From: a virus
Lineage: Duplodnaviria > Caudoviricetes
Virus record (IMG/VR): IMGVR_UViG_3300043427_000994
Length of the DNA stretch: 64,000 bases
Reading direction: 5' to 3' (one strand)
Part shown: positions 1 through 57,598 of the stretch, in pieces
How positions within the stretch are numbered: the stretch's first letter is position 1
Layout: every line of letters starts with the position of its first letter
The notes under the pieces: generated by a model
Told to the model about the DNA's origin: nothing
The model's input: only the letters and a program-made list of their open reading frames with translations
Databases searched by the model: none
Made by a program: the position numbers and the translations under genes

Positions 1-2
1 AT

Positions 3-827
3 TCATCTTGGGGCAAACTCCTGTTGTAATTTAATATTATCAAAGAATTCTTTCTTTGTATTACCATCTTCTTTAAACGCACCTTTAAGCACTGTAGTCT
101 GTGTTAAACTGCTATGTGCCATGATACCACGGTTTTCACAACAACCGTGCGTTGCTTGAATATAAACACCTAGATCTTTGGCTCCTGTAGCCTTTTCGAT
201 CTCCCTAGCAATGTCATTAGCAAGTTCCTCCTGGAGAGTACCACGTCGGGCGCACCACTGTGCGATGCGTGTGTACTTACTGAGTCCGATGAGTTTCTGA
301 GCCGCAATAATACCAATATAAGCAACGCCACTAACGGGTTGGTGATGATGGCTACACATACTGCGAAGCTCACTGCGAACAACCAACATACCTTCGTAGC
401 GGTCCTCCGAATCATTTGGGAAAGCCGTCGCGTCTGGTGATGGTTCATATCTTCCTGCCATTATTTCATTAAAGTACATCTTGGCAAGCCTACGTGCTGT
501 GCCTTTTGAGTTAGGATCGTTCTCACGATCAATTAAGAGTCTATCTAATACAAGTTCAAAGGCTTCTGTGGCTTCGTCGATAAGTTTAGATTTATCTTCT
601 TCACTTACATAGTCTGAGATGTTGTCGCCTGCCCAAAAACGCTTGTTATCACGTTTCATCTTAAAGCGAATAGTATCGCCCAAATACGCTTCTTTGTAAC
701 CTTTATCAGACATCATGTCTGCGGCTTTAACAAATACTTCTTTGCCCAAAGGTTGATATTCGTCTTTTACAAAGTCTTTATCGATCTTATGATTAATTAT
801 TGGGTCTGGTTTAAATTTTTCTGTCAT
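3..827 (-). CDS. folE: GTP cyclohydrolase I (FolE)
   Basis: SMCSHH, GLSKYTR, LQEELA and HGC..RG motifs of type IA GTP cyclohydrolase; RBS GGAGA; TGA stop at 3-5. Confidence 0.95.
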   Translation of the reverse strand: MTEKFKPDPIINHKIDKDFVKDEYQPLGKEVFVKAADMMSDKGYKEAYLGDTIRFKMKRDNKRFWAGDNISDYVSEEDKSKLIDEATEAFELVLDRLLIDRENDPNSKGTARRLAKMYFNEIMAGRYEPSPDATAFPNDSEDRYEGMLVVRSELRSMCSHHHQPVSGVAYIGIIAAQKLIGLSKYTRIAQWCARRGTLQEELANDIAREIEKATGAKDLGVYIQATHGCCENRGIMAHSSLTQTTVLKGAFKEDGNTKKEFFDNIKLQQEFAPR

Positions 828-843
828 TGTAATTCTCCGAGTT

Positions 844-861
844 ATAGACGTGGATGTCTAT
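844..861 (-). promoter_or_regulatory. 5' leader hairpin of folE (AUAGAC-AUCCAC-GUCUAU)
   Basis: perfect 6-bp stem between the -10 box and the RBS. Confidence 0.5.
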
Positions 862-866
862 GTTTT

Positions 867-896
867 ATTATATAGGTTTATTTAGGTTTTTGTCAA
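867..896 (-). promoter_or_regulatory. sigma70-type promoter for folE
   Basis: TTGACA-18 nt-TATAAT on minus strand. Confidence 0.75.
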
Positions 897-1191
897 TAAT
901 TACATTGCCGTTTTCATCGTAGGTATACCAACTATTAAGTTCAGAATCCCAATGGCGATTATCATAAATTCGAAATGCTATTCCGTAACCTAACACACCT
1001 AAAACAAATTCTAATCCAGCATGATCTCCCTTGGTAGCGAATTTAAATTCAACATCCAATAATTGATTGCTGTAATAGGTATGCTCTAATTCCCAAAATT
1101 TGTTTTTAGAAATTTGTCCGTGAAGACAACCGAGGTTACGAAAATAATCCCAACTCCAGGGACTGGCAATTTCTAAACGAAAATTAATCAT
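868..1191 (-). CDS. hypothetical protein
   Basis: 107-aa ORF with overlapping start/stop in operon; no recognised motif. Confidence 0.7.
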   Translation of the reverse strand: MINFRLEIASPWSWDYFRNLGCLHGQISKNKFWELEHTYYSNQLLDVEFKFATKGDHAGLEFVLGVLGYGIAFRIYDNRHWDSELNSWYTYDENGNVIIDKNLNKPI

Positions 1192-1412
1192 GTTCTATAT
1201 AAATTGGTTTGTCCGTTTTCTTGATTTTTACGTATTTCTTCTCTGCGAAGTTGTCTACATTCTTCTTTAACACGGGCAGGAATATCTGGATGCCATTCTG
1301 CCATACCGCAATCGTAGGCTTTGGATCTTTCTTCGTTTATGCCCATTAGAAGAAAGATAGTAAAAATCAGCAAGATTAAAATTATAATCTTTCCGACAAT
1401 AAGATTCGACAT
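1188..1412 (-). CDS. hypothetical membrane-anchored protein
   Basis: N-terminal hydrophobic helix, then C-x-M-x-E-W-H-P..C. Confidence 0.7.
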   Translation of the reverse strand: MSNLIVGKIIILILLIFTIFLLMGINEERSKAYDCGMAEWHPDIPARVKEECRQLRREEIRKNQENGQTNLYRT

Positions 1413-1600
1413 AAGTCAGCGTCCCTTAGTGATTTAAAAATAAAAGTCATTGAATCTTGTTCTGGGTGACTAGTATATCGATTTCCAGGAAGTCCAAATA
1501 CTTCCAAAACCATAGCACAGGTTTCGTTCCACCAAAATCCGTTTTGATTATCCCAAAGAATACAGATCTTATGCTGATCTGTTGCTAGTGCAACTGTCAT
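1382..1600 (-). CDS. hypothetical protein
   Basis: 72-aa ORF in tightly packed operon. Confidence 0.65.
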   Translation of the reverse strand: MTVALATDQHKICILWDNQNGFWWNETCAMVLEVFGLPGNRYTSHPEQDSMTFIFKSLRDADLCRILLSERL

Positions 1601-1766
1601 TCCACATTTCCTGTGCTTGTTTTTTATATTCGTTTAAATCCCACTCGGCTTGCTTGGCTTGATATTGTTCTTCACTTAATCCGTGCCAGCCTATACAATC
1701 TCCAGTGGGGCTACGACCGCAACCACAAGTTCCAATTTTTCCTTCTGGATTAGCTCTTACTTGCAT
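1569..1766 (-). CDS. small CDGSH-like metal/Fe-S-binding protein
   Basis: CGCGRSPTGDCIGWH resembles CDGSH C-x-C-x2-S-x5-C-D-G-S-H with one residue fewer; start moved to internal Met (MQVRAN). Confidence 0.55.
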   Translation of the reverse strand: MQVRANPEGKIGTCGCGRSPTGDCIGWHGLSEEQYQAKQAEWDLNEYKKQAQEMWNDSCTSNRSA

Positions 1767-2133
1767 TTTTATAATTTCCTTTACTTGGTATAACGTGACG
1801 TACCCCGCCACGAGGATCTTCCATGTCTCCCTTTCTGCGGGGAATCATATGGATGTGCGGATACATCACTGTTTGGCCAGCAGCCTCGCCACAGTTTTGC
1901 CCGACGTTAAAAGCGTCCCAACGTTCCGAGAGGACTCCGTCGGCACCAAACTTGTAGGCTGCTCTGTAACATTCCATAATGTTTTCAAAGCGTTCTTGGG
2001 TTGGCACAAAGAGCAAATGTCCCTCCGATACGGGATAGGCGTCTCTAAAAACCCAAAAGTCTTTTGTTCGATATTCAATTTCTGTCCACGGTGCTCGTCG
2101 TTCATTTAGTGCTTTCTCCAGATCATTAATCAT
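1750..2133 (-). CDS. HIT family hydrolase
   Basis: GHLLFVP and NVGQN.GEAAGQTVMYPHIHMIPR (first triad His replaced by Tyr); start at 2133 gives ATGA coupling and GGAGG RBS. Confidence 0.9.
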   Translation of the reverse strand: MINDLEKALNERRAPWTEIEYRTKDFWVFRDAYPVSEGHLLFVPTQERFENIMECYRAAYKFGADGVLSERWDAFNVGQNCGEAAGQTVMYPHIHMIPRRKGDMEDPRGGVRHVIPSKGNYKNASKS

Positions 2134-2708
2134 TTCCAGTATTCCTCCCAAGGATATACTAACCAGCAATCTTCTTCGGCTTTGTTGACTTCCCAAGCAT
2201 AATAATCTATGTCTGCTTGACTAGATAGATTATTTGTCAGTACAGCGAATCGAACATTTTGATGCCAAATGTCTTGATCCCAGGAAGGATCATTGGGCAT
2301 ACATCCACTACGCCAATCTTCTTTAATCCAATTAATTGTAGCACCTGTATCATTAATATCGTCTATGATCAAGATATTTTTATAACTGTCGCCTTTTTCT
2401 AAAAGATCAGCCGCCGCTTCGAATATGCCTTCGATATCGTTTTCATCTTCAACAAATCGTTCAGATTGATATCCAAAGGCATCTTCGGCCATGCCTAAAT
2501 CACTAACGGTTTGACCACCATCTCTGAGACTGACTTCTAACGGACGCATAGGAACGCCTAAAAACTGACTGATCATTACAGCAGGAATAGCACCACCTCT
2601 GGTGATGCCGACAACATAATCAGGACGCCATCCGCTGGTAATAACACTTCTTGCTATTTCTAAACAAGCACCTTCAACATCCGACCAACTGTAATAGATT
2701 TTTTTCAT
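2130..2708 (-). CDS. type I phosphoribosyltransferase (Gpt/purine PRT-like)
   Basis: VVGITRGG and PRPP-binding ILIIDDINDTGAT motifs, C-terminal YPWE. Confidence 0.9.
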   Translation of the reverse strand: MKKIYYSWSDVEGACLEIARSVITSGWRPDYVVGITRGGAIPAVMISQFLGVPMRPLEVSLRDGGQTVSDLGMAEDAFGYQSERFVEDENDIEGIFEAAADLLEKGDSYKNILIIDDINDTGATINWIKEDWRSGCMPNDPSWDQDIWHQNVRFAVLTNNLSSQADIDYYAWEVNKAEEDCWLVYPWEEYWK

Positions 2709-2941
2709 GATGTTAGTGCTGACGCTAATAATGACATTTCTTCTTTGGTCATGAAAAAATTGTAAACAGCAGTGTCAACAATTTCGCCGTCTTTTAGTGA
2801 TTGTTGTTCAAAATCAACACTAAAAAGACCTTTGGGATTTATTACTTCGTGTTGTTTTAACACAAGTCGAAATCCTTCGTGATTTTTAATTACTGTTTCT
2901 TTATAAGTCTGTCTAACTGATTCATGTAGTTCCATCTTCAT
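2705..2941 (-). CDS. hypothetical protein
   Basis: 78-aa ORF translationally coupled to neighbour. Confidence 0.7.
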   Translation of the reverse strand: MKMELHESVRQTYKETVIKNHEGFRLVLKQHEVINPKGLFSVDFEQQSLKDGEIVDTAVYNFFMTKEEMSLLASALTS

Positions 2942-3332
2942 CTCCTTTAATTGCTTCCCATGTTCTATATTTGGCCAGTGCTTTAATATAGTCGTCGTAC
3001 ATCTTTTTAAGTTTTGGATGTTTCTTTTCTAGTTTAACATCTCTTTCGGGCATATTCAAGACTTTTTCAATAGTTTCCAAACGTTCTTCTAAGTCAACAC
3101 CGTTAATAATCATATTACCTTTGACTTCTAAAGTGGGCGGATTACCTTGTTTAATTGTCATTGCCTCGTTTGGATTGGTCCAGGTTACATTCGTTCCTGT
3201 TGAAGTATAGATCAAAGGACCAGTAGTAGTTCCCGTGCCAATAGTGTAACTACTGCCACTAGCACCTGTACCGGTTAAGGTTACTGTGCTATTGCTGTTT
3301 GTTAAGTTTCCGATCGTATAAGTATTTGTCAT
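2922..3332 (-). CDS. hypothetical protein with Thr/Gly-rich N-terminus
   Basis: ORF; start moved to MTNTYT to reduce overlap. Confidence 0.65.
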   Translation of the reverse strand: MTNTYTIGNLTNSNSTVTLTGTGASGSSYTIGTGTTTGPLIYTSTGTNVTWTNPNEAMTIKQGNPPTLEVKGNMIINGVDLEERLETIEKVLNMPERDVKLEKKHPKLKKMYDDYIKALAKYRTWEAIKGDEDGTT

Positions 3333-3750
3333 TGTGAATCCAATTATCGTCAACAAGAAATCCCCATTCTCGTCGATGTGGACCAGGCATAAACAGCGTC
3401 CATGCTGTAACGCCTTCCTTTAATTCAATACGATGGTAACTTGTTGGACTACATATACGAAAGTGTCCGGGGCCACGCCATTTTCTTATTTCGCAACTTT
3501 TTGTTCCATCAGCATTAAATTGGGGAATCCATTCGTAGTAACCACCTTTGAGAATAAGGGTGGCATAAGGCCAAGGATGATCGTGAACATCGTCCGGATC
3601 ACCTTTTAAAAATTTATGTAAAAAGATATTGAAAGGAAAACGATTCCTTTCTTTTAAAAACAAATAATAACGTTCTAGATACGGCTCATTATATTGACGA
3701 TCCATGATAATTCGTTTACGTCCGAGTTTATCTAAAAGTTTTAAAATCAT
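3289..3750 (-). CDS. cupin-fold metalloenzyme (HDHPW type; putative oxygenase)
   Basis: LHKF...DVHDHPW...GGYYE...YHRI..WTLF cupin metal motifs. Confidence 0.75.
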   Translation of the reverse strand: MILKLLDKLGRKRIIMDRQYNEPYLERYYLFLKERNRFPFNIFLHKFLKGDPDDVHDHPWPYATLILKGGYYEWIPQFNADGTKSCEIRKWRGPGHFRICSPTSYHRIELKEGVTAWTLFMPGPHRREWGFLVDDNWIHNDKYLYDRKLNKQQ

Positions 3751-4844
3751 ACAAGTCTTTCTAAAAGTGTATCTGCTGAAAAGAAATTATCTGTTAAATC
3801 TTTAGTCTGTTTACGTAGTTGTGGCAAGAACTTGTCATAGTTATCCATGTATTGAATAATCTTAGCACAAAGTTCTGGACGATGTGTTTGATATGTTTCA
3901 AAGGACTCGGTCCAGGTACTTGGATATTTGAAAGTATCGTAATACATTTCTTTATAACTTAGTCGATCCGGCACCATAGGAATAGCATCTACAACAGCAC
4001 CTTCATAACAACTGATGCCTAATGTTTCTTGTAGATTAGCACTGAACACTAGTTTTGCTTCACCTAACAAATTATGGTATTCGTTCTTTGTAAGTTGTTG
4101 ATCCTGACAAACAACAAATTCATATTGTGGTAAGTGTTCTTTTAGATCTCTAAAGATTTCTACTTGTTTTTCTGGAGCAATGCGATGTGGAAACAGAATT
4201 AGATTACGTTTAACCATTCCTTTATATGTGGTTAAAGTATCTTCCATATATTCCATAGGCCACCCTGATCGAACAATCTTTGGAATCTTTCCTTGAAGAG
4301 CATCTTGAATGTCTTCTTCCAACCAAGGGTTTTCTATCATACTATCATTTAACAAATTCTTCATAAACATTTCAATATGAAAATTTGTAGCAAAATAATT
4401 ATAGTTGATAGCATGAAAGAAACTTTTTTCAGCGTGTCTAACCCACGGAGCATCACCGATAAGTCGACCTAAGAAGTCTTGAGGATCATAACTACCAGCA
4501 TGCCAAAGTGCGTGAATTTTTACAGGAATCTGTAATAGTTCACTCATATACTTTAAGTTTATGATACCAGGATGCCAAGCATCAGTAAAGATGAAGTGAT
4601 CATTAGGAGCCACTGATCCACCGCAAAACAGCCGGCCCATCTGTTCAACTTGAGCAGACTTATATATATTGGTGCCGCCAAAATTAAGGAAAGCACCAGG
4701 AGTGGTCGCACTAGGAATATCTGTAGGACCAGATATAATTTGAACATTGTGTCCTCTCTTCCGTAACAGAGTTGGTAGATGTGTCTTCCACTGTGAAGTG
4801 TAGCGTGTTTCTACCGACTCTAGATCTACAAGGTAGATCGTCAT
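3747..4844 (-). CDS. GT-B glycosyltransferase (GT4-like)
   Basis: FPHRIAPEK and E-x7-E (ETLGISCYE) nucleotide-sugar-binding motifs, then AIPMVPD. Confidence 0.8.
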   Translation of the reverse strand: MTIYLVDLESVETRYTSQWKTHLPTLLRKRGHNVQIISGPTDIPSATTPGAFLNFGGTNIYKSAQVEQMGRLFCGGSVAPNDHFIFTDAWHPGIINLKYMSELLQIPVKIHALWHAGSYDPQDFLGRLIGDAPWVRHAEKSFFHAINYNYFATNFHIEMFMKNLLNDSMIENPWLEEDIQDALQGKIPKIVRSGWPMEYMEDTLTTYKGMVKRNLILFPHRIAPEKQVEIFRDLKEHLPQYEFVVCQDQQLTKNEYHNLLGEAKLVFSANLQETLGISCYEGAVVDAIPMVPDRLSYKEMYYDTFKYPSTWTESFETYQTHRPELCAKIIQYMDNYDKFLPQLRKQTKDLTDNFFSADTLLERLV

Positions 4845-5050
4845 TGACGATTATTCCTGTAGTTATTTTGGCCTCTCGGCTTCCACTCTTTGCGTTCAAA
4901 TCTTCTTGGACGCTTACTTGCCTCGTAGGCCTGCCAAATTTTACTTTGGCGGTTATACAAATCTGCCGGATTATACGGCAACATTTCAAACCTGCAGAAA
5001 TCCAACAGGGCGTCGAGATCATCAAAAATCCTAACGACTTCTTGTTTCAT
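4841..5050 (-). CDS. hypothetical protein
   Basis: 69-aa ORF coupled to neighbour, basic C-terminus. Confidence 0.7.
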   Translation of the reverse strand: MKQEVVRIFDDLDALLDFCRFEMLPYNPADLYNRQSKIWQAYEASKRPRRFERKEWKPRGQNNYRNNRQ

Positions 5051-5067
5051 CTTTTTATTTCCTTTAA

Positions 5068-5463
5068 TTAATATTTGATGAACGAACCATTTTCTCCATC
5101 TTCGGAGACCTCAATCCAAACCTCACGGCCAGGATACTTCTTGCTAATGATGTCATATAAATCGTCTGACATCATTTCGCAACTCTTGTAGTCAAGGCTC
5201 AAAACGGAACCTTGACCATTATACAGCGACTCGAGCCATCGTTTGAACTGGATGAACTCGATGTCCCTGTCATTGTGTTGCACATTGATCCACACCCTGA
5301 AATGAAAGATGTGGCGATGAGGATAACCAAGAAACGATACATCATATTCATCTCCTGTTTTTAATTTTGGATCTTCTAGGGCCGCAGGATATTTGTGAAT
5401 TCCTTCTTTGCGGAAAGTAACCCAGATCATTTTGTTAGGGCGAACATCTTGTTTAATGATCAT
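5068..5463 (-). CDS. dpdL: QueD-like T-fold protein (DpdL-like, putative CDG decarboxylase)
   Basis: LGYPHRHIF (LxxxHRHxF), DRDIEF and SCEM motifs; DpdL assignment recalled from literature, not searched. Confidence 0.6.
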   Translation of the reverse strand: MIIKQDVRPNKMIWVTFRKEGIHKYPAALEDPKLKTGDEYDVSFLGYPHRHIFHFRVWINVQHNDRDIEFIQFKRWLESLYNGQGSVLSLDYKSCEMMSDDLYDIISKKYPGREVWIEVSEDGENGSFIKY

Positions 5464-5978
5464 TTAATAATTTTATCGTTGATATATTGTGACCAGTCTG
5501 TGAACTTACTACGATCCATTAGTGTGTGTAGACTGTGGGACCACACACCGGGATTAGTTGCCTTAAAATCTTTGTCATCGATTTTAAGCATTGTATTATA
5601 ATTCCAAAGTTTTATGTAAGGAATTGGAACACGAATCTGCGGAATAAAGTTATTGTATTCGCAGTAACCGCTTTCATGAAATTCTTCAACTTGATTAATT
5701 GGAATATCTAAACTACAAAGAATTCCTTCTTCTAACAAAGGAAAAATCATATTTTCCCAAGATTTGTGTTCTTCATAATTTTGCGGGTTAAAACTGTGAT
5801 TAGCGCCAAAGAAAATATGTTTACAAAGTTCGTTGGCGTAGTGCTGTTTAATTTCAGTATATGATTGTACACCAGTTACAAACAGTGTTTTCAAACCATA
5901 GGCGGGCGTGTGTTCTATCTCTTCTCCAACGAAGAAAATAATTTTATCTTGAGAACCGTCTTGATAATCTCTTATCAT
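5460..5978 (-). CDS. hypothetical protein within modification cluster
   Basis: ORF with EIEHTP, FFGANHSF, KIDD..F...NPGVW; start moved to MIRDYQ to avoid overlap. Confidence 0.7.
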   Translation of the reverse strand: MIRDYQDGSQDKIIFFVGEEIEHTPAYGLKTLFVTGVQSYTEIKQHYANELCKHIFFGANHSFNPQNYEEHKSWENMIFPLLEEGILCSLDIPINQVEEFHESGYCEYNNFIPQIRVPIPYIKLWNYNTMLKIDDKDFKATNPGVWSHSLHTLMDRSKFTDWSQYINDKIIK

Positions 5979-5979
5979 T

Positions 5980-6228
5980 TTAGTACTTGGTTTTTGATTT
6001 TGTACAAAGGAAGGTGCTACCTGATTCTTTTCCAACCATCGTCCACAACCGATAATCGGCCGATAGAATACATTCGTTATAGGTTGAAAAACTATCGTCG
6101 CTCATTTTCATTAAATTTCCAGTTTCTCGAAATTCTAAGGCTACAACATATTTAGGTTTAGACCATGCTTGATATGAAACAAACAGAGCACATAGCAAAA
6201 TTGTTACTAATAGGATTCGAGTTTTCAT
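5980..6228 (-). CDS. hypothetical exported/membrane protein
   Basis: signal-peptide-like N-terminus. Confidence 0.6.
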   Translation of the reverse strand: MKTRILLVTILLCALFVSYQAWSKPKYVVALEFRETGNLMKMSDDSFSTYNECILSADYRLWTMVGKESGSTFLCTKSKTKY

Positions 6229-7787
6229 TCCATGCCTTCTTCAAGTTTATCTAAATTTTGAGCCTCTTCATCGGTAAATTCTTCACCGTGTTCTAATTGT
6301 ACAGTCTCTTCTTCTGTTTCGTCAAAGAATTTGGCAAAGTTAGTGCTGGCATTGATTGTTTTCTTACCAGTAGCACCGCGAGTTCCAATAATACTAATCC
6401 AAAATTTACTGTATTCAGTTATTATGGCTTCTGCTTCTGCTCTATCGCTGGTAGCAAAAATAGCCTCAACTATGTCTTTGAAAAACAGTCTATCAAATTT
6501 TTCTTGAACCAACATAGCAGGAACAATTCCAGCATCATATTGTCGATTGGCTTCTTGAACAGCATTAATATGCATCCAAACATTATGTCCCATTTGAATA
6601 GCATAACTAAAACTATCCCAACTGGTTTTACCAATTTTTCCAATCTTGTTCATATCGGTTGGACCATATATACAGACATCAGATACTTTTAATTCTGCGC
6701 TGATTGGACTATCTTCAAAACCTTTGAATCGTCCATCTTGAACACCAACTGCTCCAAACGGACGATTGTCTTGATAATATTTTTTATCATCTATACTAGG
6801 AACCATTCGATACACCCACTTGGTGCGATCTTCAATTTCTGTTTGAATATAAATTTGTCCATTGGCAGTTGCTAGGAATGGACTAGCACAGTCAAAACTA
6901 ATAGTAAAATTAGGATTATGATATTTTCTAACAGCACGTTGGATGTCAGTGAGTAACGTAGCCCACTCTAATTTACTAGTACCAAGAAAGTGCATCCAGT
7001 CATGTACACCAGGTTCTAACAGTCCATCAAATCTTAACGCTACTAATCTACGCAATACCAAATGAACATCACACATATTCTGACCACCCATAGCCCAGCC
7101 ATTAAAATGACGTCCGGGATATTGTTTTGGATCGCAGTATTTTTTCATACGATCATACCAATCATCTGCCTCGGCATGATTCTCGCCTTGTAGAACATTA
7201 AGAAACTTACAAGAACCAGTTCTATTGTTAATAAACCAATCGTTGTTAATGTAAGTACCTTGAACGGCTTCCATATAACTGTTAATACCAGTGGCTTCTC
7301 TGCCACGAGGACTACGGCAGACCCAGGCAGGAATATCAAGAATCATGCCATAATCCATGTAAGCGTCCATCCACTTAAGAACCTGCTCACGTTTCTTTTG
7401 TGCTTTAGGACAGTTAGGATTTTTCCAATCTCCTTCCCAAACACCTTTACCAATTTGGAAACCGCCCGAATCGCCTAACAGCCAACTGTCAGCACGATTA
7501 CGATTACGTACCATATCTTCTTTAGGAGAAAATTTATTAGTATCTAAATCTGCGTGTCCAGCAGAGTATAGGCTCCAATGATATTGAAACTGTCCCTGTT
7601 GCGGATTTAACCAATTAAGACTTTCTACACCGTTGGTGAAGTTACTAGGTACTCTAGCAGGATCCACATACAGTCCTTTGACAGGATCTGGAAAACGTTG
7701 TTTTCCTACATAGGTAGCATAAAACCCGCTAAGTGCCGGTAAAAAGATAGCGTAGTCGTTCTGTGCGGCTGTTAAATTTTTATTCAT
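6225..7787 (-). CDS. dpdA: tRNA-guanine transglycosylase-like protein (DpdA family, putative 7-deazaguanine DNA transglycosylase)
   Basis: TGT motifs DSGGFQ, MILD, VLQG, GWAMGG, HFLG, SFD and HN; folE and T-fold neighbours. Confidence 0.75.
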   Translation of the reverse strand: MNKNLTAAQNDYAIFLPALSGFYATYVGKQRFPDPVKGLYVDPARVPSNFTNGVESLNWLNPQQGQFQYHWSLYSAGHADLDTNKFSPKEDMVRNRNRADSWLLGDSGGFQIGKGVWEGDWKNPNCPKAQKKREQVLKWMDAYMDYGMILDIPAWVCRSPRGREATGINSYMEAVQGTYINNDWFINNRTGSCKFLNVLQGENHAEADDWYDRMKKYCDPKQYPGRHFNGWAMGGQNMCDVHLVLRRLVALRFDGLLEPGVHDWMHFLGTSKLEWATLLTDIQRAVRKYHNPNFTISFDCASPFLATANGQIYIQTEIEDRTKWVYRMVPSIDDKKYYQDNRPFGAVGVQDGRFKGFEDSPISAELKVSDVCIYGPTDMNKIGKIGKTSWDSFSYAIQMGHNVWMHINAVQEANRQYDAGIVPAMLVQEKFDRLFFKDIVEAIFATSDRAEAEAIITEYSKFWISIIGTRGATGKKTINASTNFAKFFDETEEETVQLEHGEEFTDEEAQNLDKLEEGME

Positions 7788-8028
7788 TCAATTTTATCCA
7801 AATCTCGTAGTACGGATCATAGACCCATCCCTCTGGCGGCTCGCAAGGATCGAACATCCAAGGATGAGTCTGAGGTGTTTTTTCTTGAGGTGTAGGTGCC
7901 CATCTTTTAAGATAATCTTTTCTTATTTGATCCTGTCGTGTTTCTGGATATTGATGCGCCATAACCCCTTCTACAAGATCATCATAGTTTGTTTCACCAA
8001 AAAAGATTTTTTTAAGAAGTTCTTTCAT
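7780..8028 (-). CDS. hypothetical protein
   Basis: 82-aa ORF ending PPEGWVYDPYYEIW. Confidence 0.7.
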   Translation of the reverse strand: MKELLKKIFFGETNYDDLVEGVMAHQYPETRQDQIRKDYLKRWAPTPQEKTPQTHPWMFDPCEPPEGWVYDPYYEIWIKLNE

Positions 8029-8041
8029 TTGGAAATCCCTA

Positions 8042-8410
8042 TCATTTAACTAAGTGCTGTGCTAATACCATACAACTTATCCATACCCACAACGTGTTAA
8101 ATCCTACTAGTGTAGGTAACAATTTTTTGTTACTGGCCCATATCAGTGTTAGAGAAGTTGCCAGTGTAAAAAAATACAACCACCAAAGACTAATACCAAA
8201 AATTAAACCTGGAACGATAATAACTGCCTTTGCTAACCAACTGGCAAATTCTACTTTATTATAATCAGTCCAATACTCTTTGGTAAACCACATTCCATAA
8301 CAGTTTTTAATAGCAGGCCATGTGCTGTGGGCATAACTAACTCCAACTAGTACCGCCCAGGCTAGTGTAGCATATAAAACTTGTTCGATCGTCAATCTAT
8401 TCTCCCCCAT
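8042..8410 (-). CDS. small multi-pass membrane protein
   Basis: 3-4 hydrophobic helices; true start may be TTG at 8395. Confidence 0.7.
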   Translation of the reverse strand: MGENRLTIEQVLYATLAWAVLVGVSYAHSTWPAIKNCYGMWFTKEYWTDYNKVEFASWLAKAVIIVPGLIFGISLWWLYFFTLATSLTLIWASNKKLLPTLVGFNTLWVWISCMVLAQHLVK

Positions 8411-8595
8411 TTAATTTTTAACCAAATTCTTTCATGTATATAATAATCGATGCTTAAAAGAATATGTAATGCTGTGGCAAATCCGGTGGCATTTCCTATG
8501 TCACCGGTAAACATATAAGTCCAAAGAATAGTAAACAGCCAGGCAGTAAGCCTGTATGTTACCATTCTTGTTATAGTTCTTTTTTTAGTTTCCAT
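8392..8595 (-). CDS. DUF2061-like membrane protein
   Basis: RT..R..TYR N-terminus and YYIHERIW C-terminal motif. Confidence 0.7.
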   Translation of the reverse strand: METKKRTITRMVTYRLTAWLFTILWTYMFTGDIGNATGFATALHILLSIDYYIHERIWLKIKWGRID

Positions 8596-9329
8596 TACTT
8601 GCTTTGTGCTGGTAAAATGTAATCATAAACAGCAACACCGCTATCAACAGTGATCTGCATAGCACCTGCGTCTGCGATCTTCATAGTAATTTCGCCGTCG
8701 AGTCCTAAGATGCTCTGTACTTGACTAACTGGCCAAGCCCATGTATGTTTTAGTTTACCGCCAACATCGTGTTGGAATACAAATGAACCTGCGTGTGTGC
8801 TGGCGTCACCAAAGAAAAATACTAGGTTGTTATCTTCTGTACGAACTTGGAATACAGTTTCTTCGCTGTGTGCGGCACTTTGTAGTTTAAGTCTTTGAAT
8901 AGCGGCCACTGTTGGTTTAAATTCAACTTCCCATGAAGCACCTTTAAACTTCACTGACTTTAGTTTTTCGCTGATAATTTCACTGCTCATAAAGCGATAA
9001 TCGTTTTGAAAATCGCCAGCGGCATTTACAAAATGTAAACCAGTTGGCACAGTACTGCCATTGCGCTCGGCCTTGACTACATCAACCTTGGCATTTTCTT
9101 TATACTCTGGATTCTTCAAGTGAAGATTCAACTTGTCTAAATTAGGCATACCAAACGTGCCATCAAATTCTGCTACAGCCTTGTGTGCTTGGGCAGTAAC
9201 AATTACAGAGCGATCTTCCGCCATAGATTCGATCTGTGTTGAATTTGCGTCACCGGTAATTTTAACCAACGGCAAGAAGCCTAGGCTATGTGTATGTGCT
9301 ACGATATCTGTTAGAATGTCTTTAATCAT
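8595..9329 (-). CDS. DNA sliding clamp (T4 gp45-like)
   Basis: 244 aa alpha/beta protein immediately downstream of DNA polymerase; clamp loader elsewhere in window; assignment by size, context and recalled similarity. Confidence 0.65.
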   Translation of the reverse strand: MIKDILTDIVAHTHSLGFLPLVKITGDANSTQIESMAEDRSVIVTAQAHKAVAEFDGTFGMPNLDKLNLHLKNPEYKENAKVDVVKAERNGSTVPTGLHFVNAAGDFQNDYRFMSSEIISEKLKSVKFKGASWEVEFKPTVAAIQRLKLQSAAHSEETVFQVRTEDNNLVFFFGDASTHAGSFVFQHDVGGKLKHTWAWPVSQVQSILGLDGEITMKIADAGAMQITVDSGVAVYDYILPAQSK

Positions 9330-9349
9330 TATAGTTCTCCTTAAGATTG

Positions 9350-9378
9350 ATTATATTTAGGTTTTTGGTCAAAGTCAA
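9350..9378 (-). promoter_or_regulatory. sigma70-type promoter
   Basis: TTGACT-17 nt-TATAAT followed by AAGGAG RBS. Confidence 0.85.
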
Positions 9379-9382
9379 CCTA

Positions 9383-12052
9383 TTAAAACTCGAATAACTT
9401 ATTAAAAGTATTCTTTTCTTCAGTTGATTTAATATCCCAACCTAGAACACCTATTAAGTTTTCTAATTTATTGTCGATAATGGTATTTTCCATTTCGGCA
9501 TCATCAAATGGCAATTCCATAAACCATTTGGGTAAACGCAGTTCGTCTACAGGATAAGCCACTGAAGTATAACCTAAAGGATTATTTTTAAGTTTACATA
9601 CAATGACTTTTTGCCCATCGACAATCTGCATTGAATATTTGTCACCGTTCATGCGTCGAAGTGTATTCCAATTAATGCTGGCACGTACATGACCTGGCAT
9701 GTTAGTCTTACCAGCCTTTTCTTCTTTACCTTGATACTCGGTAATATTGTTGGCACGTTTGGGACTACCTTTCTCCCAACCTGGCCGAGATTTAAATTCG
9801 GTTCTAAACGCAGTAATAAAGTCTAAGACCTGCTGTTCTGTTGCGCCTGTTAGAACAAGTTCAAGAATGTCGCTTAGAAAGTCTTGAATAAATGCCGGAG
9901 TATCAGATCTTTTTAGATCAAGACCCATGGCTTTGATTTTTCCAGGCTTTCCGTCTATGTCGGCTCGCTTGCCTTCTTTGTCATAGACTAGCACAGCATA
10001 TCGCTTTTTAGTAATAAACAAGCCTTTAGATCCAACAATCTCACGACCTGCTTTAATAACTTCACCACGACTTGGCGGACAATGAAACGCCTGTTCCATA
10101 AACTTTATAAAGGTACCATTTACTTCATCAGCAATTTGATCATACAATGCGGTAATGTTTTCTTTAGTCCAAGGAATAGCACCAGACTCAATATCTTTTT
10201 TCAGTGTATTGTACGCTGAAAAATAACAAGAGTCAGTATCACCGTAGATTACTGCTTTACCTACGTGGTTGTATTCACCTGTGATGATTTCATTTACCTT
10301 GCCAGCCATATGTTTAGCAATTTGGCGCCCAACAAGTGTTGTTGACTGACCAATACGCTTGTCGAAAAAACGACAGCCAGGATTAAGAATAGCACCATAC
10401 AAACTGTTGAGATTAATCTTTTTAACCAACTGTCTTTTATCCCAGTATTCTTCTTCAATTTTGTTTCCACTGGTAATACACTCCTTTAGTTTGGCCTGCA
10501 TCTCTTTACGTTCAGCATACCAACGCTTTAACAAGCCGGGAATAATACCTTCTTTTTCATAAGTGAAAATAGTACCATTGGCTGAAATCATCCAAGGTTG
10601 ATTACTGTCAAAAATTAGTTTATAGACTTCGGCAGCACTGTGTACAGTATTTTCACCATCTTCCCAGTCAATGGTAATTTCTGTGTCACGACGCTGAGCC
10701 ATTACTGCTTCATATTCTTCAGAACCAAACTTACCTTCCCAACTTGCGGCAAATGATTTCTTTTTTAGATTCATTTGTTCATGGATGTATGCTTGTGTGT
10801 ATACTGGTCGTAGTTGTCCAATGATTGTCTCTGGACCCATGTTCAGCGCACGAATAGCACTTGGATACAGTGAGTTAATGTCTAGAGAACCAATCCAGTC
10901 TTGAATACCTTCTTTGGGATAGGCAACATACGCACCAGCGGCCTGAGTATCTTCGCTGTCGTCTCGTTTAGGACGATTAGGAACTTGGAAGCCTCTACGA
11001 TGTGCTTCATTAATAATAGCCTGTTCTGTAACAGCCACAGCACCCATTGTAGTCTGTAACAATACAGTATTTTCGTGTGCGATTTTATTAGCAAGATCAA
11101 TAAACTTTAGTTTATCGTCTAATTTGTTTAACAACGCAACGTCTTGTCTATTATATTCAATAAACTTTTTAAAGTCTTTGTTATATAATTGGTCTAAGGT
11201 GCCTTCGTAGACAGTTTTAGTTTCGCCAATCTCTGTTTCACCGATAGCATCTAATCGATATGTATGACGTTCTTCATAGGTAAACTTACGATAAAGTTCA
11301 AGACTGTCTAAGTGAACTCGACCGATTAGGTCATAAGTTTGAGCAGTCTTGCCGTACTTTTCATATTCTCTCTTTTTAGGAAATTGCCCCCAAAGACAAA
11401 AACGTTTAGTATCTTCTTTACTCAATACCTGTGTTATACGGTTTACAGTATAAGGAATATCATAACCTTCTGAGTTCCAACCACTTAAAATATCTGCGTC
11501 ATCGATAAGTTCAAGAAACGTTTCTAGCATATCGGACTCGTTGTCAAATATGTAAGTGTTTGGAAATTCTTTAACTGCTTCAGTGGCCTGCGCAGTGGTC
11601 ATGGTCTTAGGAGCCAATGCTAGAGTAATAAGTCTATCTAACCATTTCAGATGTACTGAAATAGCAGTGATTGGCATAAACGCATCTTCAGGTGTGGAGT
11701 AACCTCTTTCCGGATCAAAGTCTACCTCAATGTCGAAGAAGCAGATGTTTAATTTAGGTGCGTCTTGATTAAGATAGTTTTCACTGAGATGAACAAAGAT
11801 AGGATTAATATCTGATTCGTAAAGTTCTTTGCCATTGTTAATAGCCAACTCTTTACGAAAGTCTTTACTGTTCTTACAGACTACTCGAGTAAGTGGATCT
11901 CCAAATATACTTTGAAATTTACCACGGGGATCTGGATAGTAAAATGTATAGCGTACAGGATGTTCTTTATATACCCGTTCGCCTTGGTCGTTTCTTTCAA
12001 CGACTTTGATGATATCATTCTCTCTATCAAAGAGAGCGTCTACATAACTCAT
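9383..12052 (-). CDS. family B DNA polymerase with 3'-5' exonuclease
   Basis: FDIE, WNSEGYD, YN.QD exonuclease motifs; SLDINSLYPS, K..LNSLYG, YGDTDS, KKRY; start MSYVDA after GGAGA RBS. Confidence 0.98.
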   Translation of the reverse strand: MSYVDALFDRENDIIKVVERNDQGERVYKEHPVRYTFYYPDPRGKFQSIFGDPLTRVVCKNSKDFRKELAINNGKELYESDINPIFVHLSENYLNQDAPKLNICFFDIEVDFDPERGYSTPEDAFMPITAISVHLKWLDRLITLALAPKTMTTAQATEAVKEFPNTYIFDNESDMLETFLELIDDADILSGWNSEGYDIPYTVNRITQVLSKEDTKRFCLWGQFPKKREYEKYGKTAQTYDLIGRVHLDSLELYRKFTYEERHTYRLDAIGETEIGETKTVYEGTLDQLYNKDFKKFIEYNRQDVALLNKLDDKLKFIDLANKIAHENTVLLQTTMGAVAVTEQAIINEAHRRGFQVPNRPKRDDSEDTQAAGAYVAYPKEGIQDWIGSLDINSLYPSAIRALNMGPETIIGQLRPVYTQAYIHEQMNLKKKSFAASWEGKFGSEEYEAVMAQRRDTEITIDWEDGENTVHSAAEVYKLIFDSNQPWMISANGTIFTYEKEGIIPGLLKRWYAERKEMQAKLKECITSGNKIEEEYWDKRQLVKKINLNSLYGAILNPGCRFFDKRIGQSTTLVGRQIAKHMAGKVNEIITGEYNHVGKAVIYGDTDSCYFSAYNTLKKDIESGAIPWTKENITALYDQIADEVNGTFIKFMEQAFHCPPSRGEVIKAGREIVGSKGLFITKKRYAVLVYDKEGKRADIDGKPGKIKAMGLDLKRSDTPAFIQDFLSDILELVLTGATEQQVLDFITAFRTEFKSRPGWEKGSPKRANNITEYQGKEEKAGKTNMPGHVRASINWNTLRRMNGDKYSMQIVDGQKVIVCKLKNNPLGYTSVAYPVDELRLPKWFMELPFDDAEMENTIIDNKLENLIGVLGWDIKSTEEKNTFNKLFEF

Positions 12053-12124
12053 TTTTCTCCTTATGCGATTTACGGCTCGCAAACACCAAACGTGCGGCTT
12101 ATGGCCCGCAAACCTTACTGTATA

Positions 12125-46112: not shown

Positions 46113-49100
46113 TTAGAATCTTCCTACAACAACTTCAATAACGCCTTCATTGAAATCATCTTTATCTTGTACTGCTTTTCCAACGATTGTACCTGACTCA
46201 GGTGAGTTATTAACTGTAGCATATCCTTGTTTAGCACTGGTCACTAGTATATCACCTTTGCTGACTTTTCCTACAACCTTACAAGGTACGCGACCTGTTA
46301 AGCCTAGCGCAACTACATTTTCACCTGTTAAGTTAGCGTTCATCAAATGCGCTGGATTAGTAGATACTACACCTGCTACTCTAGTATCACCTTTAGTGCT
46401 AGTTACAGTAACTTCGTTAGCGCCACCAAATACTAACACAGTTCCTGGTTCGTACTGCGCATCTGCTTGATAGTTTTCTGCTAAGTCAGCATAACGAGCA
46501 CTGGTAGCAGTACCGTTATAGATACCACTGTTGTCAATCCATGATACATCTGAACCGCCTCTGCGGAAACGTACAACTTCGGTAGAATCATTACCAACGT
46601 TAACGTACCAACGATTGCTGTGATATTCAAGTTTACCAGTGCCAGCGGCCGCATCGCCGGTCCAAGTAGTAGTGTTCTGTCTAATACTAGAACTAGCGTT
46701 CATAGTTAACTGACTAGTAAAAGTCAAAGAACCTATTGATGATCCACTTAAGAATGTTGCTACCTGTTGACCCGATGCTGTACGATAGAAGTTATCACCC
46801 TTCTTAGTCATTACACCAGTAACTGCGGCAGCAGTAGATGTATCATCAGAAGAATTAAAATATGTAGCATTGCTGTATCTAGCGTTGGTATCACCGTTGC
46901 TGTCACGCAATACAATTCTATCACCAGTTGCGGATGTTGTGGCAGCAATAGTTGCCGAGTTGGCCTGACTAGTAATTGTAGCCGCATTTCCTGAAATACT
47001 ACCTTGAATAGTATTTGTAACAGTTAAGTCTAAAGTACTAATTCGACCACTTACGCCAACACCGCCAGTAACTACTAGCGTACCACTTGTAGTATTTGTT
47101 GAAGCGGCATTCTGTGTAAACGTTACAGCGTTATTAGCAGTTAATGTTGTAAATGCTCCACTACCTCTAGTAGTACCACCGATGTTTATGTTGTTAATAG
47201 TACCAGTTGACGCAGGTGCTATAGTTACAGAACCTGTGCCAGTTGGACTTAATGTAACATTAGCATTAGCAGGACTAAATGTAGCGGCCGCTGCCGATGT
47301 AATAGCATTGACACTTAGAGTACCTGTGGTAGTTATTGTTGAAGTTGAATCAGTATTACCTGATGCTTGTAAGAATTTAACACCACCAGGAGTAAACATA
47401 TCTAAGGTAGTACCAGTTGTGTCTAAAGTTTTATAACCGTCAACCTCTAACTGTGCCACGTCAACAACACCTGATCCGTCTGATTTGATTAAACTGCTGG
47501 CTTGACCTGTTGTAGAAATGTTTATAGTGCTGTATGTATTAGGAGTTATCGCAGTCATTATTAATGCGCGACCTTCACCGCCTACAGAGCCTGGCGCAAA
47601 ACTAGCATTTTTAATACCATCACCGTCAGTGACTACCTGTCCAGGAGTAATTTCGTATGGAGTTCTTGATGATCCGCTTCTATTACCTAAAACTGATCCA
47701 GTGCCTATCTGTTGAATGTTATCTAACCTAACACCGTCAGCAATGGCTGTTATACTAGTAGTACTCACAGTTTGGCTGGTACTTACAGTATAAGTTCCTG
47801 CTCCGCCTGATCCAGTACCAAACGCAATAATTCTAGTACCGCCAATGACACTGGTACCTGATATTATCTGTCCAATAGCAATAGTACCAATGCTTGGAGC
47901 ACTGGCAGTTAATGTAGTACCGCTGATACTACCTGAAAATACTGTGCTAGATGTTGTTTGTAATCTTACAAAACCATCTATGGCTGTAAACTGTGTCCAA
48001 TCAAATGCTGATAAACCTTTATTTGCCTGTGTTATGCCACTGGCACTTGAGCGTACTGTGGCATCGCTCATAGCCAATTTACTTTGTTCTATACCAGCAC
48101 TGGCATTTACATCAATGTTAAGTATGGCTCCAGGTTTAATATTCAACGCTAAGTTCTTACCACTTAGGCTTGTTTGTATGTCGCCTGTGGTAATTGTTTC
48201 AGCGTTGACCCATTTAGTTCCATTATAGACTAATAAGTTATTAAGAGTTCTTGCTGGACTAGTTGAAGTGTCTACACGTAGATTAGATAACTCTTGAACA
48301 TCAACATAAGATCTAGTAGCCGCATCGCTGTCTGTTGTAGGATCTTGTAAGTTAGCAATTCTGAAACCGCCCATGTTTAATGGATCTGGACCAGTAAACG
48401 CTAGAATACCTGATCGATCCATGTACCCTGGACCAATTAATTGACTAGAGTCAAGTACCACATTGGTTCTATCCATGCCAAGACGTCTGTCAATATAACC
48501 CTGAACAGCCGCCTCAGTTGGTAGCGCATCGTTGGCACCGTCAGTAAATCTGTCATCGTTTGAGAATTCACTGACTGTAACACCGCGCTTAAATCCTAAG
48601 CCGTCTAAGTTTGATAACGCAATACTTGCCGCAAATGTTACACGACCAGTACCTTGGTCAACTGTAAAGAATCGACCTACACGGAAAATACCGTCTTGGT
48701 CTGTGGTTACATAGAAACAGCGTCCTCTTGTACGTTCTTGAACTTCACGTGCTTGGTTAGGCTCTTTAGGAGCACCATAGATCTTAGCAGGATAGTTTGT
48801 ACTGTTGTATCCACCAGTACCGATATCTAAGAAGTCATGACCAGTAACACGACATGTTGAAATTCTAACAATAATTTCTACAGGTTCTGTAGATGCTAAA
48901 CCAGCACGTAATGTTGGAGGCTCAGCAATGTCTAAGTTAGTTAAAGGATCAACTGGAGTGTTAATACCACTTGGCGTAGTTCCTGATAGACTTTTTTCAG
49001 TTACATCTGCTAATCTAATAATAGCATAACCGGCTAACAATCCTAAGTCTTGATAACTTAAGATTCTATGTACCTTTCCGTCCCAGGCCATGATCATTTC

Positions 49101-55100: not shown

Positions 55101-55376
55101 ATTAGCGTCTTGTGTAATAGCAATAGTGCCGCTGGGGCTAGTAAATGCTTTAAACACTAAACTAGTTCCCAGTGAGTTAACCACCGGAACTTTGTTACCT
55201 TGTCCTGTTAACGTATCTGGAGTATCACTAAGGTCGGTAAATTTTAAGAAACCACCTTGACCAAAAACAGCGTAGAGTTCTTGGAAGTTTTCGTTCGTTT
55301 TTCTAAACGCTTCGCGAATACTATCGCCTGTACCATCATTACCGGTTACGCCGATGTCAACTATTTTACGTGCCAT
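46113..55376 (-). CDS. giant (~3087 aa) virion structural/fibre protein
   Basis: gp9/gp10-like [13 protein letters not shown]-terminus; six internal helical repeats; C-terminal [26 protein letters not shown] domain; start at MARKIV. Confidence 0.8.
51114..53556 (-). repeat. six ~130-150-aa protein repeats
   Basis: consensus FI..E...Y......Y....C.RD..YI..A..YD..YG.N.....AG..YY seen six times. Confidence 0.85.
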
Positions 55377-55446
55377 TGAATGCTCCAAAAAAGACTTTCT
55401 AGCATTATTTAGCCGAAAAAAAACATAAGCCTAATGTAAATACAAG

Positions 55447-55759: not shown

Positions 55760-55996
55760 ATGTTGTCATTATTAAGAAAACTTTTTGGCGGTAAAGCAGA
55801 AGAAACTAAGGCAGCAGAAGCGCCTTATAAGATTGAAACACCTGCTCCAACACCTGTAGCAGAACAAGCGACTCAGGCAGTAGTTGAGTCGATTGCCCCA
55901 AAGGCAGAACCAGTCAAGAAAAAGCCAGCACCTAAAAAGGCACCGGCTAAAGCAACTGCTAAAAAAGCCCCTGCTAAAAAAGCCCCTAAGAAGTAA
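55760..55996 (+). CDS. small protein with histone-H1-like AKK/APAKK tail
   Basis: MLSLLRKLFG start after GGAGG RBS; KKAPAK repeats. Confidence 0.7.
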   Translation: MLSLLRKLFGGKAEETKAAEAPYKIETPAPTPVAEQATQAVVESIAPKAEPVKKKPAPKKAPAKATAKKAPAKKAPKK

Positions 55997-57073: not shown

Positions 57074-57598
57074 TTATCCTTCGTAGACTGCCGAATTTCC
57101 TAAATGTTCAAACACTTCTGCAGATTTGAGCCTTACACCTGAACCTACAGGATAACGTGCTTCAAATGTCTGTCCATTAGGACAGTAGTAAGTATTTCCT
57201 GTTTTGAAAATGTGTAAAATAGTAGCCATTTCTTTGTATACTAATTCTGCAAATTTTTCACAGCCTACACCTTGTACTACTCTAAGATCACAGACACCGC
57301 CTTTGTCTTGTAATCCTAGTTCTGCCATTTTCTCAAACATAGCTCTATGGGGATCGTCTTCTGCTACAACTAGAGTATGATCAAACATGTACTCTGCCCA
57401 TTCTTTGAATGCTTTGAGTCCGCCAAAGTCCATGACCCAATTACGATCATCTAGGGTTTCGGATTCAAAAATTAGTTTGATGCCAATGGAGTAACCATGT
57501 AGCAGTGAGCAATGGCTATGTGTTGAACGCCATTGTCTAAAACAGCATGACAGCCCTCTGTCGTTACCGTAGGTTTTTGTTGATAGATATTTTGCCAT
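57074..57598 (-). CDS. queD: 6-carboxytetrahydropterin synthase-like (QueD), atypical Zn site
   Basis: CxxxHGY, MDFGGLK, DHT, CEKFAE, VFEH T-fold motifs. Confidence 0.8.
   Translation of the reverse strand: MAKYLSTKTYGNDRGLSCCFRQWRSTHSHCSLLHGYSIGIKLIFESETLDDRNWVMDFGGLKAFKEWAEYMFDHTLVVAEDDPHRAMFEKMAELGLQDKGGVCDLRVVQGVGCEKFAELVYKEMATILHIFKTGNTYYCPNGQTFEARYPVGSGVRLKSAEVFEHLGNSAVYEG

Follow-up and report, generated by a model that had tools for sequence, protein, structure and literature searches.

Organization and conservation of the gene cluster

Analysis of a window of 64,000 nt from the virus record IMGVR_UViG_3300043427_000994 (Duplodnaviria; Caudoviricetes) revealed a candidate gene cluster for the modification of phage DNA with 7-deazaguanine. 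No near-identical DNA to this window was present in the phage collection, and an exact look-up of its FolE among public contigs found no record. Positions 1-12,100 hold a tight run of genes, all on the minus strand, with the cluster genes falling within positions 3-12082 and a QueD gene lying separately at 57074-57598. From the 5′ end of the transcript, the run begins with a family B DNA polymerase, a clamp-like protein of 244 amino acids (aa), three small open reading frames (ORFs) and a 520-aa protein resembling tRNA-guanine transglycosylase (TGT); it continues with an 82-aa lineage-specific ORF, a 172-aa ORF, a 131-aa T-fold protein, a 69-aa basic ORF and a 365-aa glycosyltransferase (GT), and it ends with a cupin, two small ORFs, a phosphoribosyltransferase (PRT), a HIT-family protein, four small ORFs and FolE. 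The TGT-like, T-fold, GT, cupin, PRT, HIT, folE and queD genes had all been named in a preliminary description of this DNA, and each was found where it had been placed, co-oriented on the minus strand. FolE, HIT, PRT, the cupin and QueD were recognized by Pfam, PHROGs and NCBIfam scans, and none of these scans recognized the TGT-like protein, the GT, the T-fold protein or the 172-aa ORF.

The TGT-like protein, called DpdA below, has at least 596 relatives in IMG/VR, and conservation was read from the 80 best loci (69-100% identity, on contigs of up to 329 kb). Core genes were counted in the 40 informative loci whose sequence continues for 5 kb or more past the downstream end of DpdA, and accessory genes (FolE, PRT, cupin, HIT and small ORFs) in the 33 loci where it continues for 9.5 kb or more. 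The order of the clamp-like gene, DpdA, the 172-aa ORF, DpdL (the T-fold protein), a small ORF and the GT was kept across the 80 best loci. The order from DpdA through the GT was found in 40/40 informative loci, and the arrangement of the cluster is therefore far beyond chance.

A TGT-fold transglycosylase of the long DpdA type

The 520-aa protein (6225-7787, minus strand) is a divergent, long DpdA-like transglycosylase of TGT fold, as judged from its AlphaFold2 (AF2) model, Foldseek and VIA-align comparisons, motifs and hhalign. The AF2 model, built from a 53-sequence alignment, reached a pLDDT of 92, and its top 50 Foldseek matches were TGTs throughout (E ~6e-6). Alignment of the model to 2ash by VIA-align gave a Z score of 18.2 and a root mean square deviation of 4.3 with 309 residues aligned, and the protein thus has the (β/α)8 barrel of TGT type. 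Residues D106, S107 and G109 (in DSGGFQ), D151 (in LDIP), H266 and D299 (in FDC) were invariant among 53 diverse family members, which sample 990 clusters at 50% identity and reach down to 27% identity. The catalytic aspartates are presumably equivalent to D102, D156 and D280 of the Zymomonas mobilis TGT, as suggested by inspection of the motifs, and the DSGG and (S/Y)D motifs aligned with those of the DpdA of Acidovorax phage ACP17 in hhalign. These results, together with the FolE, QueD and DpdL genes described below, bear out the preliminary description of the locus as a 7-deazaguanine cluster with a divergent DpdA.

Comparison of the family with described members of the DpdA group showed relationships mostly at the level of profiles. 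By hhalign, the long-DpdA family matched ACP17 DpdA and the transglycosylase of Burkholderia phage BCSR5 with probabilities of 96% and 93%, and DpdA3 of Cellulophaga phage phiST weakly, with 68%. The 520-aa protein had no BLAST-level match to named DpdA3 members; among isolates, its BLAST-level relatives were limited to the PA5oct group, Phosso and a single vibriophage fragment, and the family profile had no match among PDB sequences. By these sequence comparisons the protein looks like a member of a separate long-DpdA clade of 990 clusters at 50% identity, and, from its modelled fold, it is presumed to exchange guanine in DNA for 7-deazaguanine.

DpdL and the genes for the 7-deazaguanine precursor

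The T-fold protein encoded at 5068-5463 (131 aa, minus strand) is QueD-like and carries the signature LxxxHRHxF, here reading LGYPHRHIF. Residues H23, H49, H51, H63, E69, E96 and E121 were invariant across ten phage lineages, including phiST, and the protein is 56% identical to ACP17 DpdL and 34% identical to CGPG_00067 of phiST. DpdL, a paralogue of QueD in which CxxxHGH has become LxxxHRHxF, was named by Cui, Hutinet et al. 2023 and proposed to decarboxylate 7-carboxy-7-deazaguanine (CDG) (PMC10516641). On its signature, we assign the T-fold protein as DpdL, the proposed CDG decarboxylase. In phiST all G is replaced by 2′-deoxy-7-deazaguanosine (dDG), and the published route to dDG consists of FolE, QueD, QueE, DpdL and DpdA, without QueC (PMC10516641). 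The preliminary description had compared the cluster with the dPreQ0, dPreQ1, dG+ and dADG routes, a list that is incomplete, since the DpdL route to dDG is published. Because the LxxxHRHxF protein is the DpdL of this published route, much of the apparent oddity of the cluster is already explained.

The remaining genes of the precursor pathway fit the same route. FolE, GTP cyclohydrolase I (3-827, minus strand), matched PF01227 (GTP_cyclohydroI, E 5e-39, residues 96-265) and phrog_2197, and was present in 30/33 relatives. Its N-terminal extension of about 75-95 aa lies outside the Pfam and NCBIfam models; the FolE proteins of ACP17, BUCT-ZZ01 and phiST have 220 aa. QueD, the 6-carboxytetrahydropterin (CPH4) synthase (57074-57598, minus strand), matched PF01242 (E 8e-12) and TIGR03367; its motif reads CxxxHGY instead of CxxxHGH, with the PTPS domain match present. 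The same CxxxHGY was common to the QueD proteins of phiST, ACP17, BUCT-ZZ01, BCSR5 and RHph_I1_18 (e.g. L092:5487-5981 and L083:5798-6274), suggesting that it is a conserved subfamily trait of the QueDs of DpdL phages rather than a defect. The variant appears compatible with function, because phiST QueD shares it and phiST makes dDG.

The status of QueE and QueC was read from close relatives rather than from the genome of the window phage itself. In JGI contig L090, which is 95% identical to the window over 15 kb, a gene for QueE stands next to folE, about 0.5 kb past what is the left edge of the window. It encodes a 284-aa radical S-adenosylmethionine protein that matches QueE models and PA5oct QueE, and it is followed by a 143-aa gene and a 5′-3′ exonuclease, as in PA5oct. 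QueE was found in 5/5 large related IMG/VR records, and QueC above the cut-off in 0/5 of these relatives, including a 329-kb genome with terminal repeats that is rated 100% complete. The preliminary description had placed both QueE and QueC outside the window; this stands for QueC, for which the relatives extend it to the genome, whereas QueE, on the evidence of L090, lies just beyond the edge and is not absent from the genome. The genomic context is thus that of DpdL, with FolE, QueD, QueE and DpdA present and QueC absent.

A GT4-like glycosyltransferase is a fixed member of the cluster

The gene at 3747-4844 (minus strand) encodes a 365-aa GT-B fold, GT4-like glycosyltransferase, as indicated by its AF2 model (pLDDT 85), its fold matches and an E-x7-E motif. 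The top Foldseek matches in PDB were glycogen synthase, BshA, PglA, MshA and PimA (TM 0.55-0.67), and the Swiss-Prot fold matches were GT4 enzymes throughout, with tRNA-queuosine mannosyltransferase at rank 20. A pteridine glucosyltransferase (5zes) ranked 31 among the PDB fold matches, one of hundreds of GT4 matches. Taken from the model, the queuosine and pteridine matches suggest no more than that acceptors of this kind are within reach of GT4 enzymes. The E-x7-E motif (E273 and E281, in the C-terminal domain) was invariant in 30 sequences, including those of PA5oct and ACP17. The protein matched neither Pfam (Glycos_transf_1, Glyco_transf_4) nor NCBIfam or PHROG models, and its family profile had no match in PDB.

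The GT accompanied DpdA and DpdL in 40/40 informative loci. Comparison with 50,697 phage records gave 23 records matching the GT, 18 of them with a full-length homologue, and all 18 also carry DpdL. With the window's own group, these full-length homologues form seven lineages, the others being PA5oct-like phages, ACP17, Phosso, BUDD/X1, BUCT-ZZ01 and BCSR5. The GT always lies in DpdL's cluster, adjoining DpdL or DpdA, although gene order varies between lineages. These results agree with the earlier suggestion that the GT falls outside the described routes, and they show the co-occurrence with dpdA that had been named there as a test, as well as co-occurrence with dpdL. DpdL phages without this GT are phiST and its kin, RHph_I1_18 and Ahp1, whose transglycosylases are short or different, and the DpdL phages Bakedbeans, D479 and MA9V-3 gave no GT match among the phage records.

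Distant GT4 relatives occur in Xanthomonas and Erwinia jumbo phages together with GlmS and a BshB-like deacetylase. In Xanthomonas phage PhiXhv-12 (L100 4669-7903), the GT4 relative, GlmS and the BshB-like deacetylase make up a three-gene amino-sugar module with no deazaguanine genes nearby. Synechococcus phage BUCT-ZZ01 has a second GT (L096:4388-5731; weak Glyco_trans_1_4 match) directly upstream of its DpdA, in addition to the conserved GT downstream of DpdL, so that two GTs flank its DpdA-DpdL pair. We also considered whether the GT could decorate hydroxymethyl-pyrimidines. Genes of the ThyA-family hydroxymethylases were absent from ACP17, BUDD and BUCT-ZZ01, and because no ThyA-like enzyme is there to make such bases, the GT of these three phages cannot serve ThyA-made hydroxymethyl-pyrimidines.

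The 172-aa protein and the accessory genes

The 172-aa protein (5460-5978, minus strand) belongs to no known family, and its ORF was found in 40/40 relatives, always near DpdA, in line with the co-occurrence that the preliminary description had singled out for examination. The ORF is real and conserved, with about 4,700 database relatives, all unnamed, and is 31% identical to ASD50402 of ACP17, the gene immediately upstream of ACP17 DpdA. It had no match in Pfam, NCBIfam, PHROGs, a PDB profile search or the ESM Atlas, and hhalign comparisons to PA5oct gp320, the Phosso 'glycosylase' and phiST CGPG_00066 were negative. Its segment HIFFGANHSF...SLDIP was aligned by hhalign with LLGDSGGFQ...ILDIP of DpdA at a probability of only 0.5%. 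The protein could be a degenerate TGT-like half-domain, like the inactive QTRT2 subunit, or the likeness of sequence could be due to chance. Prediction of a complex between DpdA and the 172-aa protein gave a score of 0.00, which says nothing about binding in either direction. A small basic protein of 69 aa and isoelectric point (pI) 9.7 (4841-5050, minus strand) is encoded between DpdL and the GT; it was found in 37/40 relatives and had no family match. The GT and the 172-aa protein are fixed parts of this pathway variant.

The genes downstream of the GT showed a wider range of conservation. The most frequent after FolE was a type I purine PRT, Gpt-like (2130-2708, minus strand; PF00156, E 3e-11, 43.5 bits against a cut-off of 26.3), which weakly matched the xanthine PRT model NF006613 and was present in 27/33 relatives. 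PRT homologues also lie inside the clusters of PA5oct (gp321) and BUCT-ZZ01, making the PRT a recurrent cluster member. The small cysteine-dioxygenase-like cupin with the motif HDHPW (3289-3750, minus strand) matched phrog_4786, 'cysteine dioxygenase' (E 1e-37), and was found in 15/33 relatives. In all, 101 phage records contain a homologue of it; most come from phages of Mycobacterium, Burkholderia, Gordonia and Xylella, and none of the records listed was a DpdL-carrying isolate. The HIT-family nucleotide hydrolase/transferase (127 aa; 1750-2133, minus strand; PF01230, E 9e-9, 36 bits against a cut-off of 21.5) was found in 13/33 relatives; the mechanical ORF runs to 2196, and the likely ATG start at 2133 follows the gene call in L090. 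Its motif reads Y-P-H-I-H-M-I, keeping two of the three histidines of His-x-His-x-His.

The cupin and the HIT protein are thus variable, lineage-specific extras, and the cupin is not specific to DpdA phages. The preliminary description had counted both among the tailoring genes of the pathway; the expected co-occurrence of the cupin with dpdA did not hold up, its homologues being mainly in mycobacteriophages and other unrelated phages, and the case for HIT is weakened by its variable presence. On the same co-occurrence data we rejected the idea that the cupin and the GT act as a pair that hydroxylates and then glycosylates the base. Two small ORFs between the PRT and the cupin (2705-2941 and 2922-3356, minus strand) are variable, being present in 6/33 and 8/33 relatives, respectively, and bear no enzyme signature; the C-terminus of the latter resembles PA5oct gp319.

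Comparison with known systems

The cluster shares with phiST the QueC-less pathway logic, the DpdL motif, the CxxxHGY motif of QueD and a TGT-like transglycosylase. In contrast, phiST DpdA3 has only 259 aa and is only weakly related, and phiST lacks the GT4 enzyme, the 172-aa partner and the PRT, in whose place it has a MazG-like pyrophosphatase and an AAA-type protein.

Genes gp316-gp322 of the Pseudomonas jumbo phage PA5oct, annotated as hypothetical throughout, include a DpdA of the same subfamily (32% identity over the full length) with an adjacent GT (39%), then DpdL (55%), the PRT (gp321) and QueE; upstream, the cluster is preceded by a sliding-clamp-like gene and a DNA polymerase. Homologues of the 172-aa ORF, the cupin and HIT were not detected in the 17.6-kb stretch around the PA5oct cluster, the part that was compared. 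Between DpdL and the PRT, PA5oct carries gp320 (L001:11419-11937), also of 172 aa, whose match to the NAD-dependent epimerase/dehydratase family is confined to the N-terminal Rossmann part and which, on this match, may be related to sugar-nucleotide metabolism. PA5oct DNA resists cleavage at G-containing restriction sites, from which a modification of G has been inferred (PMC12191111).

The cluster of ACP17 consists of QueD, FolE, ASD50402, DpdA, GT, DpdL and QueE, and resembles that of the window in its GT (34% identity), its DpdL, its homologue of the 172-aa protein adjoining DpdA and the profile-level relation of its DpdA. It differs in belonging to a T4-like phage of 156 kb, in a shorter DpdA (424 aa) and in having no PRT. 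Xanthomonas phage BUDD (L093:3885-5458) and BCSR5 (L097:9267-11105) share a gene trio just upstream of the GT, encoding a protein of the 3′-phosphoadenosine-5′-phosphosulfate (PAPS)-reductase/ATP-pyrophosphatase family and two proteins of no assigned family, which may represent a different tailoring set.

More distant parallels exist outside the DpdL phages. The bacterial pathways to tubercidin (Tub) and huimycin (Hui), compared here by description, also use FolE, QueD and QueE to reach CDG or preQ0, but they belong to secondary metabolism, have no transglycosylase and no DNA target, and employ a UbiD decarboxylase rather than a T-fold protein. In the huimycin pathway a nitrogen of the 7-deazapurine base receives a sugar from HuiG, whose annotation includes the GT4-type Pfam domain PF13439; the sugar is reportedly placed on the 2-amino group. 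In the tubercidin pathway, which runs through FolE, QueD and QueE without QueC, TubE is a CDG-specific PRT that acts before decarboxylation (PMC6112128). The glucosyl-hydroxymethylcytosine of T-even phages and the glycan-modified 5-hydroxymethylcytosine known from metagenomes are similar in that phage GT-B enzymes decorate a pre-modified base and thereby evade nucleases. Those systems, however, use a hydroxymethyl pyrimidine and enzymes like T4 β-glucosyltransferase, whereas here a purine analogue is paired with a GT4-like GT.

Genes adjoining the cluster

Upstream of DpdA, the family B DNA polymerase is encoded at 9383-12082 (minus strand; PF00136 and PF03104) and a 244-aa sliding-clamp-like protein at 8595-9329 (minus strand), the latter 33% identical to a gene of Phosso that carries a sliding clamp annotation and 36% identical to PA5oct gp314. 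The layout of a polymerase followed by the cluster recurs in PA5oct, ACP17 and Phosso. The homologue gp314 is annotated as 'structural protein' from mass spectrometry of PA5oct virions; by sequence likeness the protein of the window is probably a replication clamp, and the gp314 annotation may mislead. A σ70-like promoter sequence with an 11/12 consensus match lies at 9350-9378 (minus strand), in the gap before the clamp-like ORF, and another (TTGACA, 18-nt spacer, TATAAT; 12/12 match) at 867-896 (minus strand), upstream of folE. Promoter-like sites overall were not more numerous than in shuffled sequences, and both sites are to be read as consensus matches only. Elsewhere in the window, a UvdE-type UV-damage endonuclease (55986-57020; PF03851, E 7e-41) adjoins QueD, and a single ORF of 3,091 aa occupies 46113-55388 on the minus strand.

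A proposed pathway and its alternatives

We propose that the cluster is a QueC-less, DpdL-type module for 7-deazaguanine modification of DNA in a large (jumbo-class) environmental phage, a reading that we consider reasonably likely, and, more tentatively, that the virion base is a glycosylated derivative. FolE would convert GTP to dihydroneopterin triphosphate (H2NTP), QueD would form CPH4 and QueE would form CDG, functions that are established for these enzymes and assigned here by homology. DpdL would then remove the carboxyl group of CDG, as the literature proposes, to give 7-deazaguanine, and DpdA, judging from its fold, its motifs and the analogy with DpdA3, would swap 7-deazaguanine for guanine in phage DNA after replication. 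In the simplest view, the Gpt-like PRT would recycle the released guanine to GMP and back towards GTP. Finally, the GT would most likely attach a sugar to the deazapurine, whether this is still a free base or already part of DNA, and the virion base would be glycosylated rather than plain dDG. We hold the core of this model, the dDG-type pathway, to be highly probable; the step that places a sugar on the deazapurine, which leans on analogy, is put forward tentatively.

That the GT is fixed in the cluster suggests a further transfer of sugar. Two precedents plausibly leave room for such a step, the N-glycosylation of a deazapurine by HuiG and the mannosylation of tRNA queuosine by a GT4 enzyme. 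Room is also left by the finding that DpdL and DpdA of ACP17 alone did not produce dDG in E. coli, for which the authors suggested that other enzymes may be needed (PMC10516641). The restriction resistance of PA5oct DNA, in a GT-bearing relative, also speaks for the model. It is possible, if slightly more doubtful, that the virion DNA of the window group and of PA5oct, ACP17, Phosso, BUDD/X1, BCSR5 and BUCT-ZZ01 all carries a sugar-bearing 7-deazaguanine, with the 172-aa protein as a further component of the pathway.

Several observations weigh against this proposal, some of them against its core. The 520-aa sequence has no CxCxxC zinc site, C372 alone being near-invariant, and it matches no Pfam model, PF01702 included; among the 53 family members, only one gave a marginal TGT match (E 0.043). 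In Phosso, DpdA lies about 170 kb away from the DpdL-GT cluster, and the decarboxylase activity of DpdL is itself a proposal (PMC10516641). Others bear on the sugar. Among the top fold matches of the GT, nothing pointed specifically to the T4 DNA glucosyltransferases, and the GT is acidic, with a pI of about 5.6 in all lineages; as a clue to DNA binding, however, the pI proved uninformative, DpdA being equally acidic. Because 7-deazaguanine lacks a hydroxyl, any sugar would have to be joined through an N- or C-glycosidic bond, and retaining GT4 enzymes do not usually form such bonds. Moreover, phiST and vibriophage VP1 make plain dDG, and as phiST does so in the absence of the GT, formation of dDG as such does not require this enzyme.

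These last points favor the view that the window phage, like phiST and VP1, makes plain dDG and that the GT4 enzyme and the 172-aa protein merely travel along while acting elsewhere, for example on a protein of the host or the phage, on a by-product of the pathway or on a cofactor. In DpdL systems no product other than dDG, with complete replacement of G, has ever been measured, the deazapurine offers no obvious acceptor group, and the structures nearest to the acidic GT act on small molecules, lipids or glycans. A mere passenger, on the other hand, is difficult to reconcile with the position of the GT in DpdL's cluster in seven lineages despite shuffled gene order, with the restriction of its full-length homologues to DpdL phages and with its presence in every informative relative. 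The distant GT4 relatives stand in another context, with GlmS and a BshB-like deacetylase, which argues that the GT clade is specific to DpdL phages. On this evidence we regard plain dDG with unrelated roles for the two proteins as somewhat unlikely.

The recurrence of the PRT in the clusters of three lineages and the abutment of the cluster on a DNA polymerase raise a different possibility, a tubercidin-like route at the nucleotide level in which the PRT would join CDG to phosphoribosyl pyrophosphate (PRPP), DpdL would decarboxylate the nucleotide, the family B polymerase would incorporate 7-deaza-(d)GTP, HIT would trim intermediates and DpdA would patch the remaining G. TubE offers a precedent (PMC6112128), and complete replacement has been reported for DpdA3 phages (PMC10516641). 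The PRT, however, is missing from ACP17, phiST, BUDD and 6/33 relatives, and its likeness to Gpt is weak, whereas DpdA is found universally, and insertion after replication is what the dDG study argues for (PMC10516641); we consider this route improbable. Still less probable, to a degree that makes it very hard to sustain, is that the TGT-fold enzyme modifies phage or host tRNA, TGT being by origin a tRNA enzyme, or that FolE, the T-fold protein and the GT make a glycosylated pterin, as the pteridine glucosyltransferase among the fold matches might suggest. The 64-kb window has no tRNA genes, phiST, a relative with the same gene set, carries the base in its DNA, QueE commits the pathway to deazapurines rather than pterins, and the pteridine enzyme does not stand out from the many other GT4 matches.

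Implications

The type of pathway has been known since 2023, and the proposed glycosylated 7-deazaguanine module leaves a realistic chance that the cluster makes a chemically new base. Three features appear to be new, none having been found in the literature searched, a search that lay outside the key review and the supplement of PMC10516641: the long, zinc-less DpdA clade that is invisible to Pfam, its invariable association with a GT4 enzyme and its association with the 172-aa protein. The clade is very large, with 990 clusters at 50% identity and hundreds of IMG/VR contigs, and always travels with DpdL, GT4 and the 172-aa protein.

7-Deazaguanine modifications of DNA protect phages from restriction enzymes and Cas9, and they are themselves targeted by newly found defense nucleases and glycosylases. 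To our knowledge, eight 7-deazaguanine DNA bases are known and none bears a sugar, so that a sugar-bearing 7-deazaguanine, if confirmed, would be the first glycosylated purine analogue in a genome of which we are aware. The GT and the 172-aa protein are candidates for the missing components of the pathway and may explain why DpdL and DpdA alone failed to reconstitute dDG. Culturable phages, among them the therapy candidate PA5oct, carry the same GT in their clusters.

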